DNA of 64,000 nt, taken from positions 1 to 64,000 of IMG/VR virus record IMGVR_UViG_2850796239_000011; one strand, 5' to 3'. Within the stretch, counting starts at the first letter, position 1. Each line of letters opens with the position of its first letter. Shown one piece after another: positions 26,493 through 45,867 of this stretch. The stretch comes from a virus. Its lineage: Duplodnaviria; Heunggongvirae; Uroviricota; Caudoviricetes. The notes beneath the pieces are model-generated. The model had not been told where the DNA came from, did no database searches, and was given only the letters and a program-made list of their open reading frames with translations. The position numbers were made by a program, and so were the translations under genes.

Positions 26493-26605
26493 GGATATTT
26501 ATCAGGATTTATCGGCTTCAAATCCCCGGATATGTTAAATCTTACCTCGCCAGTGATGGGCACTGGCGGGAGGAGGATGTCAATCTGATAAACACAGAGG
26601 TGACT

Positions 26606-26866
26606 ATGGATTACACAAATCTACCAAAACAAACTTTTGCTGATTTAATCGCACTCAGGCAAGCAGTCGTAGCTCTAATCAACTTGTTGCCGGAGAAGGA
26701 AAAGGAATTAGTTAAAGCGCTTCTTAACAGAACTGCCGCCGATTTTTCATCATATCCACTGACAGATGACCTTGCGGACCTTCCTGAATTAATTGCAGCG
26801 TCCGCCATTAAGCTTACTGAAGAGATTTACCCTCCTCAAAAATCTTCACAAAATTCCTGCGAGTAA
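26606..26866 (+). CDS. Hypothetical protein (within lysis-cassette insertion)
   Basis: ATG at 26606 with AGAGG 6 nt upstream; 86 aa; hairpin plus T8 run downstream (~26886-26920). Confidence 0.35.
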   Translation: MDYTNLPKQTFADLIALRQAVVALINLLPEKEKELVKALLNRTAADFSSYPLTDDLADLPELIAASAIKLTEEIYPPQKSSQNSCE

Positions 26867-27348: not shown

Positions 27349-27564
27349 TTACTCTCCCCGCGCAGCCTTACGCTTGTCTTCTCTTATTTTGAAATACAGG
27401 TTAGTCAGATATGTCAGCAGCCCAAACAGCAGACTCCCCAGCACGCCTATTGCCGCCCACTGAGACGGGGAAACCCTGTCCAGCAACTGCAGGAACCAGT
27501 AGCCCGTTCCCACCGCTGACGTGGTGTATGACACACCTGTTGTGATTTTTTCCATCTGGTCCAT
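27349..27564 (-). CDS. S: Class II holin (S21/EssD-like pinholin) with dual-start motif
   Basis: '[71 protein letters not shown]', close match to DLP12 EssD; Met1 and Met4 ('MDQM') give the antiholin/holin dual start. Confidence 0.8.
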
Positions 27565-27871
27565 ACCCCGTCTCCCGTTATCCGGAAGCTGACAACAATA
27601 AAAAAGCCACCAGTTAACTACTGATGGCTCTGATAACTCATGCAAGCGTCTCAGACGATCCACTGACACTACCGGTGAGTTTAACGATACCTTCCATTTG
27701 ACTGGCTCACTTTTTATGATGATGCCGGTGCATTTATCTCCAGCACCAGACTTTCTATCTCAACGCCATACGTTGCATTTTTGGTAATATCCGTCAGCGT
27801 CAGTGCATTTAGTCCCACTGCCAGACTGTCTTTTATGGCCTGGAATGCCGGGCCAGTACGATGACGTAGTA

Positions 27872-28075
27872 TCACTCCGGCTCAGTTGCACCACTGACCA
27901 CCACATCACCTTCTGCTGCAATCGCCTGCATCAGGGTATAAGGGGTTATGGCCACCGGACTACCAAACGGCTGCCAGCCCTCTTTCAGTTTATGTGTCAG
28001 CTTTTCCGCAAGATCTGACGGCGGCGCCGCCCTGACAACATCATAGTGTTTAAATGCCATGGTTCTTTCCACCAT
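27872..28075 (-). CDS. Small conserved lambdoid protein (DUF1737-like)
   Basis: 67 aa ('MAFKHYDVVRA...LKEGWQPFGSPVAITPY'), upstream of the holin. Confidence 0.4.
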   Translation of the reverse strand: MVERTMAFKHYDVVRAAPPSDLAEKLTHKLKEGWQPFGSPVAITPYTLMQAIAAEGDVVVSGATEPE

Positions 28076-28320
28076 CTAAAAAATAATTCTTTAAAATACC
28101 TGACATGTAATACAGAAAAAGCACAAAACCATACATTAAATAAAAACCTGATTATCAAGCAGATATGCATGGATAAACTACAAGACGAGATATAAACCAC
28201 CCTGCATTTAAATAAACAATAAACAACATCAGAAAAATAATTCTGCTCTATGGTTTACATTCAAAAATATCATTTATACTTTTCAGAACATCACCAGCAA
28301 GGCATAAACAAGGAAACTAA

Positions 28321-28656
28321 ATGAAGTGGATTGTGATTGATACAGTTATCCAGCCATCATGCGGAATATCTTTTTCAGTCATATGGAGTAAAATAAAATT
28401 AATAATCTGGTATCAATCGGATGCTTTCTTACCTCCTGAAAGTATATTTACACTGACTCACACAGGCATCATGCTCAATAACAAAGTGCTACCTGTAACC
28501 ATTTACAACGTAGTACCATTCAATAAAACATTCTGGAATTTAATCAAAAACAGCCAGGAATGCCCTACAAATACAGATAACGTATTGAATGAATGCTTTA
28601 ATAACCGTTGCACTCTGCAAATATGTCCTTATGGACTAAAACAACAAAGTCCATAA
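28321..28656 (+). CDS. Hypothetical Cys-containing protein in AT-rich cargo locus
   Basis: 111-aa ORF, RBS AAGGA 7 nt upstream, AT-rich context; antisense to late transcription. Confidence 0.3.
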
Positions 28657-28693
28657 GGAGTTTACTCACATCTGACAAAATCAATATAAACAG

Positions 28694-28713
28694 CCCCTCC
28701 GGAGAGGGGCTGG
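28694..28713. terminator. GC-rich hairpin (candidate terminator)
   Basis: 'AGCCCCTCCGGAGAGGGGCT' palindrome after the 28321 ORF; T-rich stretch follows on the minus strand. Confidence 0.3.
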
Positions 28714-29031
28714 AGAGTGGCGCTATGTGCCATTGCATGGTGCCGGGTGCCTCCCGGTGAATTCAGTACCAGCACCTGAATCCGCGATTATCCCATATAC
28801 CTACTCGCTGATTGCCCCTCCGCACAGGGGGATTCACCATGCCAGTTTCTTTTAACAAACTCCCCGCAAACCAGACAACAGTCAACCGCCTGAATTGTGA
28901 AGTATTTAAAAATTTCTCCCGCTAACTGATACCCGGCTAACAGTCTGGCGTTTTCTTTTTCAGCAACGGGAAAGCAACAACCCTGTTATCGTGTCGTCTG
29001 CTCTTCCTGATAAGCTAATGGCGGTTTGTGA

Positions 29032-29107
29032 TGGTGGCCCTTGCTGGATTTGAACCAGCGACCTGGCGATTATGAGTCGCTCGCTCTCACCACTGAGCTA
29101 AAGGGCC
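29032..29107 (-). tRNA. tRNA with CAU anticodon, ileX-like (tRNA-Ile2)
   Basis: 76-nt cloverleaf: 7-bp acceptor stem, 'TAGCTCAGTGG' D-arm, 'CTCATAA' anticodon loop, 'GGTTCAAATCC' T-arm, CCA end; close to E. coli ileX. Confidence 0.9.
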
Positions 29108-29140: not shown

Positions 29141-29170
29141 CGCAATAAAAAACCCGCTCGGCGGCGGGTT
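29141..29170 (-). terminator. Rho-independent terminator (tR'-like) downstream of the late promoter
   Basis: Stem 'AACCCGC/GCGGGTT' with 6-nt loop followed by a T-run on the minus strand. Confidence 0.55.
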
Positions 29171-29217
29171 GTAGAAACTCTTCTAACGTCAGGCATAAAA
29201 CGCCCATAGTTATGACG

Positions 29218-29245
29218 AATTTACCACAGATTCCGGAAAAATCAA
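29218..29245 (-). promoter_or_regulatory. Candidate late promoter PR'
   Basis: Minus strand TTGATT-N16-TAAATT just downstream of Q. Confidence 0.3.
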
Positions 29246-29250
29246 CCTTG

Positions 29251-30072
29251 TTACCTAGTTACCTTTTTTAACTGCCGCTCAGCCCATGCTTCTTCAATAT
29301 CAAACCGGGTCACCAGCGCATCATAGAATTTCTTAACTGTTTTTTCCCATGACGCGCGTGTTATCTGGTTTGTCACCTCGCATATAGCATTAAATGCCTC
29401 CGTTGATGGTAGTCTTTCATAGCCACGACCACCACAACGCTGGCAGTCTCTGATAACAGGCATACCACGTTTTACCGACTCTTCACGATGAATGGCGACA
29501 CCACGCCCACGGCAATCCTTACAGGCGGTGGAAACCTCACCCTTTCCGCCACACTCCGGACAGGCAACTTTTACCACCTCCCTGACTTTTTTCCATTCTT
29601 CCCAGTAAGACGGATACACACCTTTCGTACACTTTGCCCATACCGGCGGCTTACCATCCGGATACTGGACCTTGTTTGTAAAAACTACGCTTTCAATAAA
29701 TTTTTCCCCATAGCAACAAGGGCACTGCTTTTTACTCGCTGCGCTGCGGGCATAATCCTCAAAAGCGTACGAAGCCATAATGCGCATCACTACCGGTTTT
29801 ATTTCTGCCGGAAGTTTTCTCAACGCCGCCACACGATCGCACCGACTGAGTGCATAATCAGCCAGTAATTCTGTTGCCCGCGCCCTGTCATTCATACTGA
29901 TGCCCATTTTCCCCAGGAACGCAGAAAACCCCATCTCAGCCCGATTCTGTGTCATGCCCTGCGCGGCCATCACATCAGTGATACTCAGCGCATCTTTTGA
30001 CGTTGAGGCCGATGCATCGGTCAGGCAAGGGGATTTTGGGGAGTAGTATTTCGGTAAATCTTCCAGTTTCAT
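29251..30072 (-). CDS. Q: Late antiterminator Q (Cys-rich, zinc-binding type)
   Basis: 273 aa with several CxxC motifs; located between RusA and the lysis region. Confidence 0.8.
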   Translation of the reverse strand: MKLEDLPKYYSPKSPCLTDASASTSKDALSITDVMAAQGMTQNRAEMGFSAFLGKMGISMNDRARATELLADYALSRCDRVAALRKLPAEIKPVVMRIMASYAFEDYARSAASKKQCPCCYGEKFIESVVFTNKVQYPDGKPPVWAKCTKGVYPSYWEEWKKVREVVKVACPECGGKGEVSTACKDCRGRGVAIHREESVKRGMPVIRDCQRCGGRGYERLPSTEAFNAICEVTNQITRASWEKTVKKFYDALVTRFDIEEAWAERQLKKVTR

Positions 30073-30443: not shown

Positions 30444-30700
30444 CAGCGCAGCACCTCCTGCACCAGTTTTTCAAACTTTCCGACTCTGGTTTCCAGCTCT
30501 GCCACACAGTCCACCAGCTCATCTACTGCTTTCTGTGCGCGATGCTTCGCCTGCATCAGTTCCCGAAGCGCGGGTACCATATCTTTACGGATAGCATCTT
30601 TTGTTATGCCCGTTTTTTCGAGTTGTTCAGCATGACGCAGCATTTCCTGCGCGTGTTTACGCAATTGTTCAGGGGTAAAAGTCATTGTCTGGTTGTTCAA
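30443..30700 (-). CDS. Small nin-region protein (hypothetical)
   Basis: 85-aa helical ORF coupled between the helicase and RusA genes. Confidence 0.5.
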   Translation of the reverse strand: MNNQTMTFTPEQLRKHAQEMLRHAEQLEKTGITKDAIRKDMVPALRELMQAKHRAQKAVDELVDCVAELETRVGKFEKLVQEVLR

Positions 30701-32088
30701 AAGAAACGCTCCATCTTACTGCTGTCAGTTCGTTTATTACTGTATCTGCGCGGATTGCCGGGCTTCATGGGAGTGGAAAGCACCCGTGCACTTTCCTGGT
30801 CCACAGGCAGAAAATGTCCGTTATAAAAACGCCGGTAAATCGTTCCCAGAGAACCGTTACGTTGTTTCGTGATATTGATTTCTGCGATGCCCCTGGCCTG
30901 CGTATCCGGGTTGTACACTTCATCCCTGTAAAGCATCAGAATGATGTCTGCATCCGCCTCTATTTCTCCGGAATTTTTCAGGTCTGAGTTCATGGGACGT
31001 TTATTGGGTCTGGACTCCACACCGCGGGAGAGCTGGCTCAGCGCAATCAACGGAAAACCACCGGATTTTGCCAGGCCTTTAAGCCCCTTTGAGATTTCAC
31101 CCACGGCAAGGTCATGACGCCCCGTGGTTCGGGTTTTTATCAGCCCGAGATAATCAACCACCACCAGCGCCGTTTCCGGATGTTTAATCAGATGGTGTTT
31201 CGTTGTTGCGCATATCTCATCAATGGTCAGGTTCGCCTGGTCCACCATCCAGATATTGCGCCCGGTCATCCGCCCCACCCCTTGTGAGAAACGCGCCCAG
31301 TCTTCATCTTCAAAGTGAGCCACAGATTTCAGGCGTGATACTGGCATCCCTCCAGCCGCAGACACCATACGTTCACCAATCTGGATGTTCGCCATCTCCA
31401 TGGTGAACAGAAGCACACCATGCCCCTGCTCAGTCACCTTGTCGATGATGTCCAGCGCAAGTTCGGTTTTCCCCATCGAAGGACGAGCCGCAATAAATAC
31501 CAGGTCGCCGGGCTCCATGCCGCCTGTTTTTGCGTCCAGTTCATCAATACCGGTCATCAACGTCCTGGATTTCTCCAGTCCCTGATTCCGGCATTCAACA
31601 CGCTCAACCACCTCCGGAAGCACATCATCAATATGTACCGACTGAATAACGCCCTTTTCCGTCGACAATGAGGCCATCATGTTCTGTGCATCCTTAAGAG
31701 CATCTTCAGCTGCTTCACAGGTATGCGCATCGCGTAATTTCTGTAATGCCTCGTTCAGTGTTTTTTCTGCATCGCGCAGTGCGGCATTGCGCCGCAACGC
31801 TGCAACATAGTGCTCCAGTGAAGACTTCACCCAGGTTTTACGCCCGGTATCAGTAATCACCGGGGCAAGTTCTGGCATCTCATTGCACAACAGCACAGGA
31901 TCAATCACGCCGGACACACGGGCCTGTCTGCAGATGCCTGTGTAGATATCCCGGTACGGTCGTACAGAAAAAACGTCCGCCGGTAGTGTGGCCAGAATAT
32001 CCATCACTTCAGGATCTGCTCCGCGCAGAAAGAACGCGCCGATGACAGCGCCTTCAAGGTCATCGTTACGCCATACTGGAGTTGTCAT
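30697..32088 (-). CDS. Replicative DNA helicase (DnaB-like)
   Basis: 463 aa; Walker A 'ARPSMGKTELAL' and DnaB C-terminal motifs. Confidence 0.9.
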   Translation of the reverse strand: MTTPVWRNDDLEGAVIGAFFLRGADPEVMDILATLPADVFSVRPYRDIYTGICRQARVSGVIDPVLLCNEMPELAPVITDTGRKTWVKSSLEHYVAALRRNAALRDAEKTLNEALQKLRDAHTCEAAEDALKDAQNMMASLSTEKGVIQSVHIDDVLPEVVERVECRNQGLEKSRTLMTGIDELDAKTGGMEPGDLVFIAARPSMGKTELALDIIDKVTEQGHGVLLFTMEMANIQIGERMVSAAGGMPVSRLKSVAHFEDEDWARFSQGVGRMTGRNIWMVDQANLTIDEICATTKHHLIKHPETALVVVDYLGLIKTRTTGRHDLAVGEISKGLKGLAKSGGFPLIALSQLSRGVESRPNKRPMNSDLKNSGEIEADADIILMLYRDEVYNPDTQARGIAEINITKQRNGSLGTIYRRFYNGHFLPVDQESARVLSTPMKPGNPRRYSNKRTDSSKMERFF

Positions 32089-39706: not shown

Positions 39707-39793
39707 TGGCTAATTTATCCCCTGTATCTGTTGTGCACGAAAAAGTGCAGTGAGGTGTACTGGCAATAGCGGACACTACCATTTGTTCTTTTT

Positions 39794-40612
39794 TTAAGCA
39801 GCCATCTGATGATATTTTTCCCTGAAGGCTGCCGGGGAGATATTCCCCAGACGAGAGTGACGACGCTGACGATTGTAGAAAATCTCAATGTATTCCCGTA
39901 TTACTGAGATGGCTTCATCCCGGTTATTAAAACGATAGTGGCTCAGGCTCTCATTTTTCAGCGTTCCCCAGAAGCTTTCCATCGGAGCGTTGTCGTAACA
40001 GTTACCTTTACGCGACATTGATGTTTTCAGACCAGACTGCTCCTGTATGACCCGGTAATCGTATGCGCAGTACTGTGAACCTCGATCAGAGTGGTGGATT
40101 AGCCCGGCAGGTGGGCGCTGGCTCCTGAGCGCCATAAACAGGGCTTTACCTGTCAGCTCTTTTGTCATGCGCTCTCCCATGGCGTAGCCGACAATTTCGC
40201 ACGTATAAACATCTTTGATGCCAGCGAGGTACAACCATCCCTCCTGTGTGGCAACATACGTCAGGTCCGCCACCCAGACCTGATTTGGTGCTGTAGGAGC
40301 GAACGTCTGGTTCAGCAGATTTGGCGCAACTGGCAGATTGTGGTTCGGGTTCGTAGTCGCTCTGAACTTGCGTTTCTGCTTACAGCGTAGCCTTAGCTCC
40401 TTACGAAGACGTGCCAGTCGGTCACGACCAACGATGATGCCATTCTCTGCCAGCTCCGTCTGGAGCCGCCGGGTTCCATATGTTTCGCGAGTGCGGATAT
40501 GTGCCACCTTAATCTCCAGTTTTAGCCGCTCATCACTTTGTTTTCTGTCTGAGGGTTCATGCTGTACCCAGTTGTAATAACCGCTCCTGGATACACCAAA
40601 TACCTGACACAT
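39794..40612 (-). CDS. IS600 transposase OrfB (DDE integrase domain)
   Basis: 272 aa IS3-family OrfB. Confidence 0.9.
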   Translation of the reverse strand: MCQVFGVSRSGYYNWVQHEPSDRKQSDERLKLEIKVAHIRTRETYGTRRLQTELAENGIIVGRDRLARLRKELRLRCKQKRKFRATTNPNHNLPVAPNLLNQTFAPTAPNQVWVADLTYVATQEGWLYLAGIKDVYTCEIVGYAMGERMTKELTGKALFMALRSQRPPAGLIHHSDRGSQYCAYDYRVIQEQSGLKTSMSRKGNCYDNAPMESFWGTLKNESLSHYRFNNRDEAISVIREYIEIFYNRQRRHSRLGNISPAAFREKYHQMAA

Positions 40613-40647
40613 CGCTTCAATGGGAAATTGTTGTCGCCATTGTTCGA

Positions 40648-40950
40648 TTAACGCGTATTTTTCAGCGACTCCTGTGCAAAATACGCTGTTGCTTTTTTTA
40701 ATATATCTCGCTCAAGGCGAGCTTCATTTAACGCCTTACGCAGTTGCAGAATTTCAGATTCCAGTTCAGCCACCGTGCGGGAACCAGGAGTACCGAGCCC
40801 TTTTCTGGCGGCGGTAACCCATTGTCCTAAAGTGCCTTCAGGAAGGGATAATCGGGAAGCGCCTTCACTGATCGAAAGTTGATTTTCAAGAACCGTTCTG
40901 ACAGCTTCGGCTTTGAACTCTTTAGAGTAACGTTGGGTTTTTCTGCTCAT
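40648..40950 (-). CDS. IS600 OrfA (HTH)
   Basis: 100 aa 'MSRKTQRYSKEFKAEAVRTVLENQLSISEGASRLSLPEG'. Confidence 0.9.
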   Translation of the reverse strand: MSRKTQRYSKEFKAEAVRTVLENQLSISEGASRLSLPEGTLGQWVTAARKGLGTPGSRTVAELESEILQLRKALNEARLERDILKKATAYFAQESLKNTR

Positions 40951-41159
40951 TATTAGCTCCTTCTGATGCCATTCTATTTCAGGAAGGAGTGTCCGTTAAA
41001 CTCAGGCTACCTCACAGATCGTTATGACAATTGAAAATGGCCAGGTAACAGATGTCTGCAAAGTCCGCGATGGAGAGCTGATTGCCAGCATGGATACATT
41101 CATACGGCTGGCAGAAAGAGCGGGGTATCAGATAACAGCACCTGCTCAGGAGGAAACCA

Positions 41160-44518: not shown

Positions 44519-44581
44519 TGAGGTAGCCTGAGTTTAACGGACACTCCTTCCTGAAATAGAATGGCATCAGAAGGAGCTAAT

Positions 44582-44884
44582 AATGAGCAGAAAAACCCAA
44601 CGTTACTCTAAAGAGTTCAAAGCCGAAGCTGTCAGAACGGTTCTTGAAAATTAACTTTCGATCAGTGAAGGCGCTTCCCGATTATCCCTTCCTGAAGGCA
44701 CTTTAGGACAATGGGTTACCGCCGCCAGAAAAGGGCTCGGTACTCCTGGTTCCCGCACGGTGGCTGAACTGGAATCTGAAATTCTGCAACTGCGTAAGGC
44801 GTTAAATGAAGCTCGCCTTGAGCGAGATATATTAAAAAAAGCAACAGCGTATTTTGCACAGGAGTCGCTGAAAAATACGCGTTA
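44582..44884 (+). pseudogene. IS600 orfA with premature stop (Gln24 to stop)
   Basis: Identical to copy 1 orfA except CAA to TAA at 44651-44653. Confidence 0.7.
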
Positions 44885-44920
44885 ATCGAACAATGGCGAC
44901 AACAATTTCCCATTGAAGCG

Positions 44921-45739
44921 ATGTGTCAGGTATTTGGTGTATCCAGGAGCGGTTATTACAACTGGGTACAGCATGAACCCTCAGACAGAAAACAAAGTGA
45001 TGAGCGGCTAAAACTGGAGATTAAGGTGGCACATATCCGCACTCGCGAAACATATGGAACCCGGCGGCTCCAGACGGAGCTGGCAGAGAATGGCATCATC
45101 GTTGGTCGTGACCGACTGGCACGTCTTCGTAAGGAGCTAAGGCTACGCTGTAAGCAGAAACGCAAGTTCAGAGCGACTACGAACTCGAACCACAATCTGC
45201 CAGTTGCGCCAAATCTGCTGAACCAGACGTTCGCTCCTACAGCACCAAATCAGGTCTGGGTGGCGGACCTGACGTATGTTGCCACACAGGAGGGATGGTT
45301 GTACCTCGCTGGCATCAAAGATGTTTATACGTGCGAAATTGTCGGCTACGCCATGGGAGAGCGCATGACAAAAGAGCTGACAGGTAAAGCCCTGTTTATG
45401 GCGCTCAGGAGCCAGCGCCCACCTGCCGGGCTAATCCACCACTCTGATCGAGGTTCACAGTACTGCGCATACGATTACCGGGTCATACAGGAGCAGTTTG
45501 GTCTGAAAACATCAATGTCGCGTAAAGGTAACTGTTACGACAACGCTCCGATGGAAAGCTTCTGGGGAACGCTGAAAAATGAGAGCCTGAGCCACTATCG
45601 TTTTAATAACCGGGATGAAGCCATCTCAGTAATACGGGAATACATTGAGATTTTCTACAATCGTCAGCGTCGTCACTCTCGTCTGGGGAATATCTCCCCG
45701 GCAGCCTTCAGGGAAAAATATCATCAGATGGCTGCTTAA
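44921..45739 (+). CDS. IS600 transposase OrfB
   Basis: 272 aa, two substitutions relative to copy 1. Confidence 0.9.
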   Translation: MCQVFGVSRSGYYNWVQHEPSDRKQSDERLKLEIKVAHIRTRETYGTRRLQTELAENGIIVGRDRLARLRKELRLRCKQKRKFRATTNSNHNLPVAPNLLNQTFAPTAPNQVWVADLTYVATQEGWLYLAGIKDVYTCEIVGYAMGERMTKELTGKALFMALRSQRPPAGLIHHSDRGSQYCAYDYRVIQEQFGLKTSMSRKGNCYDNAPMESFWGTLKNESLSHYRFNNRDEAISVIREYIEIFYNRQRRHSRLGNISPAAFREKYHQMAA

Positions 45740-45867
45740 AAAAAGAACAAATGGTAGTGTCCGCTATTGCCAGTACACCTCACTTATCTCAGCAGAAATT
45801 ATCAGTATTGAACCCGCTACAAACATACGGCTCTGAAGTTCTCACTATTCAGAGAGCAGGAGAAAAA

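Follow-up and report, generated by a model that had tools for sequence, protein, structure and literature searches.

An AT-rich cassette among the late genes of a lambdoid prophage carries an open reading frame identical to iraL, the gene of an RssB anti-adaptor

Introduction

IraL is the fourth RssB anti-adaptor and was described in the uropathogenic E. coli strain CFT073 by Hryckowian et al. 2014 (PMC4045071). It copurifies with RssB, and in two-hybrid assays it binds only the N-terminal receiver domain of RssB; both results were published for a protein identical to the one presented here. [quoted passage not shown] The gene has its own experimentally mapped sigma-70 promoter. The 5' end of its mRNA was mapped by 5'-RACE in CFT073 (ACATCACCAGCAAGGCATAAACAAGGAAACCA), and a promoter fragment from -100 to +33 was enough to complement the CFT073 delta-iraL mutant (PMC4045071). 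The iraL mRNA goes up by 1.6 log2 upon a shift from 23 to 37°C (PMC12890032), and IraL levels are increased in a fur mutant (PMC7157518). iraL is under-represented in EHEC and enriched in UPEC and Shigella, and its location was given in the 2014 paper as the "potB genomic island" only (PMC4045071). In this way IraL changes the amount of RpoS during growth. In uropathogenic E. coli and Shigella it thereby influences the tolerance to stress and possibly the adaptation to a niche, all of which has been published.

IraM of E. coli K-12 (YcgW/ElbA; 8TWD, PMC10844676) belongs to the same family, has a homologous beta-barrel N-domain and is likewise an RssB anti-adaptor. However, IraM responds to Mg2+ starvation whereas IraL is expressed in log phase, the two genes have no flanking similarity, and IraL has a C-terminal extension of 4 residues. 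The crystal structure of IraM with RssB defines three contact clusters (PMC10844676). RssC of Salmonella has been described as the third member of the iraL-iraM-rssC family, with about 49% identity to iraL and an occurrence restricted to Salmonella (PMC4045071). The only other solved IraM fold is that of PmrD (4HN7; PMC10844676), also a small protein that binds a response-regulator-type protein, but its target is PmrA and not RssB.

The late region of lambdoid prophages is known for its morons (stxAB, bor, lom), which share a deviant composition, a promoter of their own and a polymorphic position between backbone genes. In Stx2 phages stx lies between the tRNAs and the sRNA STnc100, which is found 75 nt downstream of stx2AB (PMC12370729). 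Here we analyse such a late region in a stretch of 64,000 nucleotides (the window; positions 1 to 64,000 of IMG/VR virus record IMGVR_UViG_2850796239_000011). A preliminary description of the window had pointed to an AT-rich cargo gene in the interval between the Q/tRNA genes and the lysis genes. What the present analysis adds to the published work is a sharply bounded 630-bp cassette beside the stx slot, a convergent STnc100, an antisense placement, a conflation in the databases and a genome count.

Results and discussion

A replaceable AT-rich cassette

The cassette and the genes on its lysis side are as follows.

28062-28691, no strand assigned: iraL cassette (moron), a replaceable AT-rich module of 630 bp, delimited by the junctions with iraL-less relatives
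27872-28075, minus strand: DUF1737 ORF at the left border of the cassette (Pfam PF08410), marked incomplete in RefSeq
27349-27669, minus strand: class II (P21-type) holin, the first lysis gene (Pfam PF04971, E 6e-32); the RefSeq start is at 27564

The marked AT-richness that had been noted beforehand was borne out. The GC content is 0.321 in 28062-28691 and averages 0.515 over the window (z -4.35); just 0.01% of the 630-bp windows are at or below the value of the cassette, and no 630-bp stretch of the 64 kb is poorer in GC than the one found at this locus. Along the profile the GC content is 0.29-0.35 across 28050-28650 and about 0.5 on either side.

A presence/absence comparison across related prophages, which the preliminary description had proposed as a check, showed that the cassette is present in some and absent from others, with sharp junctions. 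Two relatives, L003 and L004, are without iraL but have retained the genes around it (Q, tRNA region, DUF1737/nanS-p gene, holin). In both of them homology to the window ends at 28061 and returns at 28689-28692, and the cassette was therefore defined as 28062-28691. The left junction (28061/28062) is positioned one base past the CAT that represents the minus-strand start codon of the DUF1737/nanS-p gene, and at the right junction (28691/28692) homology restarts at the first base of a hairpin stem. No direct repeats flanking the cassette were visible in the junction alignments with L003 and L004; it therefore resembles a module that is swapped by recombination in the conserved flanks.

In the place of the cassette L004 has a spacer of 232 bp and L003 has 716 bp with only short overlapping ORFs (at most 87 aa) and no convincing gene. 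Part of the L003 replacement (positions 1448-1673 of that sequence) is a degenerate second copy of the STnc100 region with 70% identity, which suggests that the slot was remodelled by duplication and recombination around the sRNA. The cassette also supplants the ribosome-binding site of the DUF1737/nanS-p gene, which reads GGAGGATT in the relatives and GGTGGAAAGAAC in the window.

The gene at the left border is itself not complete. The sequence at 27714-28075 on the minus strand is a remnant, namely the truncated N-terminal part of a nanS-p/DUF6645-type gene of about 620 aa that is full-length in L004 and L007 and intact in O104:H4 and other relatives.

The cassette ORF is identical to iraL of CFT073

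28321-28656, plus strand: iraL coding sequence, 111 aa, RssB anti-adaptor, with an ATG start; assigned by the CFT073 identity, the NCBIfam profile and the PDB match

The plus-strand 111-aa ORF reported earlier from the sequence, with its Cys residues and a plausible ribosome-binding site, was recovered in all these respects. Cys is found at positions 14, 81, 92, 97 and 102, all five in common with IraM, and AAGGAA at 28310-28315 ends 5 nt before the ATG. The database and structure search that had been suggested for the protein led to IraL of uropathogenic E. coli CFT073 (C_RS06710, old tag c1429, protein WP_000871291.1) and to PDB entry 8TWD. The coding sequences of CFT073 and the window are identical at 336/336 nt and the proteins at 111/111 aa, whereas membership of the IraL allele group asks for at least 95% identical nucleotides along the entire (100%) CFT073 iraL coding region. 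The NCBIfam model NF007393 (IraM subfamily) gave 162 bits against a cutoff of 121, with residues 1-110 corresponding to profile positions 1-113/114. In the PDB search 8TWD chain A, IraM(1-78), was matched at the sequence level with an E of 9.1e-32 and 51/78 identical residues over residues 1-78; PmrD was absent from the PDB matches of the window protein at E<=1. The Pfam scan of the ORF found no family at E<=0.01, and the PHROGs search returned only the unnamed family phrog_4407. With IraM as the sole PDB relative and no Pfam family at that threshold, the ORF is, as had been stated, not an Stx subunit.

By the sequence criteria of the describing paper, i.e. identity of the coding region, promoter and mapped 5' end, the ORF falls into the IraL allele group, and by the curated profile it belongs to the IraM/IraL/RssC family. 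It is very probable that the 111-aa ORF is iraL, a lysogenic-conversion gene on a 630-bp cassette that has its own promoter and whose product blocks RssB and so raises sigma-S. The gene is not novel; it was known before, and its function has been characterised in CFT073.

In RefSeq (WP_000871291.1) and UniProt (IRAM_ECO27) IraL bears the label "IraM", and surveys based on annotation conflate the two paralogues. At least 1000 contigs encode the exact window protein, always under the name IraM.

Promoter and transcript start

28254-28259, plus strand: candidate -35 TTTACA, a sequence reading; identical in CFT073
28275-28280, plus strand: candidate -10 TATACT, 15 nt after TTTACA and ending 7 nt before the mapped transcript start; identical in CFT073
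28288-28320, plus strand: iraL transcript start at 28288 and 33-nt 5' UTR, from the 5'-RACE in CFT073; includes the Shine-Dalgarno AAGGAA at 28310-28315

The CFT073 RACE sequence was located in the window, where it begins at 28288 and differs by a single substitution (+31). Over the -100 to +33 fragment the window and CFT073 are identical at 131/133 positions (98.5%), and the changes, at -1 and +31, are outside the hexamers. The identity to CFT073 of the promoter and upstream regulatory region together with the mapped 5' end is thus above the 96% set for it. From 28136 to 28286 there are zero changes, and 7 substitutions occur in the 259 bp upstream of iraL while the coding sequence is 100% identical. 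The assignment of TTTACA and TATACT is our own reading, and the hexamers are candidates; the -35 in particular is a candidate that needs a short spacer of 15 nt. The substitution at -1 could modestly alter promoter output. The upstream region, with a GC content of 29%, would suit silencing of the H-NS type.

[quoted passage not shown]

In the properties by which a moron is recognized, the cassette is a discrete polymorphic insertion between backbone genes, it has a deviant base composition, and it carries a predicted promoter of its own with hexamers identical to those of the active CFT073 promoter. It does not have a factor-independent terminator of its own, the sole hairpin (28691-28712) being outside the cassette with its T-tract on the minus strand. 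The reading of the ORF as an AT-rich cargo gene of the Q/tRNA-to-lysis interval is upheld by the mapped promoter in CFT073 (PMC4045071) and by the presence/absence pattern of the cassette.

The downstream hairpin belongs to STnc100

28691-28712, no strand assigned: GC-rich hairpin CAGCCCCTCCGGAGAGGGGCTG of 9 bp, 7 of them G-C, a backbone element that folds in both strands
28682-28871, minus strand: prophage sRNA STnc100 (Rfam RF02076), convergent with iraL

A GC hairpin downstream of the ORF had been counted among its features. The hairpin is present at 28691-28712, but it is situated outside the cassette, is conserved also in relatives that have no iraL and corresponds to the 3' end of STnc100. 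The terminator scan reported it on the minus strand only. The letters after the hairpin are TTTATATTGA on that strand and GAGAGTGGCG, which contains no T-tract, on the plus strand. The match of Rfam RF02076 at 28682-28871 on the minus strand covers the full-length model (132.4 bits, gathering score 47, E 3.5e-30), and the published STnc_100 qPCR primers match exactly at 28822-28841 and 28749-28768. We conclude that STnc100 has this hairpin as its intrinsic terminator. Possibly it also acts as a weak stop or 3' stabiliser for the iraL mRNA.

RefSeq places a partial plus-strand "hypothetical protein" across STnc100 (28727-28852 of the window, from L005 21379-21504); this ORF is probably spurious.

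The iraL interval is found between STnc100 and the nanS-p/DUF1737 gene. Since STnc100 follows stx2AB at a distance of 75 nt, the stx and iraL slots are adjacent and not the same. The proposal that the ORF occupies an stx-type cargo interval is thus right in that iraL, like stx, is placed between Q/tRNA and lysis, and needs correction in that it is not in the exact stx slot, iraL being located beyond STnc100: stx2 is on the Q/tRNA side of the sRNA and iraL is on its lysis side.

Position in the late region

29251-30072, minus strand: late antiterminator Q, 273 aa (Pfam PF03589, E 6e-55; phrog_127)
29218-29245, minus strand: putative Q-dependent late promoter pR' (TTGATT, 16-nt spacer, TAAATT), which starts 5 nt after the Q stop codon
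29151-29170, minus strand: intrinsic terminator, tR'-like, downstream of the putative pR' (AACCCGCCGCCGAGCGGGTT then TTTTTATTGCG)
29032-29107, minus strand: phage tRNA with anticodon CAT, called Met by ARAGORN and tRNA-Ile by RefSeq

Q, the tRNA, the holin, the lysozyme and Rz are all encoded on the minus strand, and the claim that the ORF is antisense to late transcription was confirmed by this arrangement; a DUF1327/YdfR protein is, like lysozyme and Rz, one of the further minus-strand neighbours. Because of its antisense orientation iraL is not drivable by Q antitermination, unlike stx.

The pR' at 29218-29245 is putative, with a score of 8/12 that is below the scan threshold. A mosaic breakpoint at 29145/29146 ends the putative promoter-terminator unit and shows it to travel with Q, as expected for a pR'-tR' pair. 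After the putative late promoter the sequence reads AACTATGGG, which we take to resemble the pause-inducing element of lambda pR'. A weak Rfam match to Trp_leader at 29144-29250 on the minus strand, below the gathering score, was taken as a generic resemblance to a leader followed by a terminator and was rejected. An equation of the unit with StxS, as a short pR'-terminator transcript, was rejected as well. By its published description StxS involves a 144-aa Q and a 258-nt transcript, whereas Q of the window is a 273-aa PF03589 protein and the terminator comes some 40-60 nt behind the putative promoter. The RefSeq call of tRNA-Ile for the CAT anticodon would imply a lysidine-modified, ileZ-like tRNA.

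The order of modules is the one of the lambdoid prophage that carries iraL in CFT073: Q, tRNA, STnc100 region, iraL on the opposite strand, DUF1737 remnant, holin. The CFT073 copy differs by the presence of two tRNA-Arg genes, a DUF3927 gene and an IS200, which are absent from the window prophage. It is located at potB/potC/potD, whereas the closest relative of the window has its prophage next to yecN/cmoA. Between 28982 and 29000 about 0.7 kb is missing in comparison with CFT073-type prophages, comprising the two tRNA-Arg genes and most of the DUF3927 gene.

Distribution of the cassette

A 641-bp segment of the locus is present at >=90% identity in 1446 of the 5426 complete E. coli genomes, and in all but 27 of these at >=95%. 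The site is occupied in 1428-1446 of the 5426 genomes (about 27%) and empty in 983 complete E. coli genomes, many of them O157:H7. The empty sites in many O157:H7 genomes agree with the earlier finding that iraL is under-represented in EHEC. In O104:H4 the cassette adjoins a full-length nanS-p-type esterase gene, whereas the window and CFT073 have truncated remnants at this place. Deposited phage genomes also carry the iraL cassette in the same arrangement.

Proposed action on RssB and alternative explanations

In the lysogen iraL would be transcribed from its own sigma-70 promoter, starting at 28288, and in the direction opposite to that of the late operon, which is silent in this state; with the late operon terminated, iraL would be free for expression. 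The 111-aa product would bind the N-terminal receiver domain of the adaptor RssB, which would then be unable to pass sigma-S (RpoS) to the ClpXP protease. The longer-lived sigma-S would accumulate during exponential growth and pre-arm the general stress response of the host. This copy of iraL is presumably expressed in the source strain.

The residues of the contact clusters were compared between IraM and the window protein. In cluster I, which faces the 4-5-5 face of the RssB N-domain, 5/5 residues are identical (I4, I6, W22, K26, I42). In cluster II (RssB C-domain) 3/5 residues are identical and in cluster III (linker, helix alpha-8) 2/4. The changes from IraM to the window protein in the contacts to C-domain and linker are T13S, L75I, H63N and I64V. 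Judged from the residues, this pattern would be consistent with a binding of RssB through the N-domain only.

The name "anti-adapter protein IraM" in RefSeq and UniProt, the NCBIfam model scored above its cutoff, and an identity of 62% with all five Cys in common could be taken to mean that the ORF is an orthologue of K-12 IraM, the PhoP- and Mg2+-starvation-induced anti-adaptor that clamps both RssB domains. We regard this as very improbable. The identity amounts to just 62% at the amino acid and 70.6% at the nucleotide level, far from the near-identity of >=95% that was looked for, and the similarity is limited to 28319-28640. As it is confined to the coding sequence, the promoters are unrelated. 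Control by PhoP as for iraM was considered and rejected: one half-site is present (GGTTTA at 28252), a complete direct-repeat box is absent, and the upstream region does not resemble that of K-12 iraM. The two genes do not share a position either, the context being a lambdoid late region in the one case and the neighbourhood of e14 (iraM-ycgX) in the other, and there are substitutions among the residues that touch the C-domain and linker of RssB. Moreover, iraL and iraM have been published as non-overlapping allele groups, of which iraL is active in log phase without added stress and binds the N-domain only (PMC4045071). The least probable explanation, to which we give hardly any weight, is that of a decayed, non-expressed remnant with a fortuitous reading frame. 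The preliminary description had named it as the outcome to expect if signals for expression and homologs were missing; a homolog and promoter and RBS signals are present. The AT-rich region, the missing Pfam match, the pseudogenised neighbours (DUF1737 remnant, deleted tRNA-Arg genes) and the nearby IS600 copies would fit such a remnant. Against it stand a coding sequence that matches a gene of experimentally shown activity in every nucleotide (100%) while the 259 bp upstream have 7 substitutions, a segment conserved at >=95% identity in almost all 1446 carrier genomes, the exact protein on at least 1000 contigs, and the intact promoter, transcript start and RBS.

A further explanation, which does not exclude the one based on iraL, is that the gene serves the phage: the raised sigma-S would tune prophage maintenance and induction or superinfection, as a switch that operates in lysogeny only. 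The antisense location inside the late operon, convergent with a prophage sRNA, argues for this, as do the same position kept across many mosaic prophages and deposited phage genomes and the observation that StxS, another product of a prophage late region, likewise raises RpoS. However, the enrichment in UPEC and Shigella argues for a benefit in the niche of the host, and iraL persists in defective prophages (CFT073 with its IS200 insertion, the window with IS600). We consider a phage-serving role unlikely, yet less so than the two explanations above.

With the ORF read as iraL, its location bears on what may happen upon induction. Late transcription would pass in order through the tRNA, STnc100 with its terminator, iraL in antisense, the DUF1737 remnant and the lysis genes, and after induction the antiterminated polymerases would run head-on through iraL. 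It is plausible that Q-antiterminated antisense transcription lowers iraL expression after prophage induction. Whether the placement as such is regulatory is a more tentative matter, and we offer as a minority view that the stabilisation of sigma-S is confined to lysogeny, is cancelled on entry into the lytic cycle and is coupled to STnc100. In such a case the late transcription that follows induction would overrun iraL and switch it off, and read-through iraL transcripts, proceeding past a hairpin without a plus-strand T-tract, would be antisense to STnc100. In the searchable literature no paper was found on the position of iraL relative to STnc100 or on its antisense orientation in the late operon. 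The position of the cassette with respect to both is a small descriptive increment and not a new system.

Other features of the window

A second plus-strand ORF inside the minus-strand lysis cassette is found at 26600-26866. It encodes 88 aa, matches phrog_2572 and no Pfam family, and overlaps the 3' end of the YdfR-family gene; CFT073 has a plus-strand "hypothetical protein" at the corresponding position. This ORF may be another antisense cargo gene.

E. coli FDAARGOS_944, the closest relative, has three IS600 copies, and the sequences at 39750-41015 and 44519-45782 each match all of them with 99.6-99.9% identity. In that strain IS600 sits elsewhere, interrupting the DnaB helicase and the integrase, whereas the DnaB helicase gene of the window (30697-32088) is intact. 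The IS600 load suggests a Shigella-like background. Despite the IS600 copies in the window prophage, the iraL cassette is intact.
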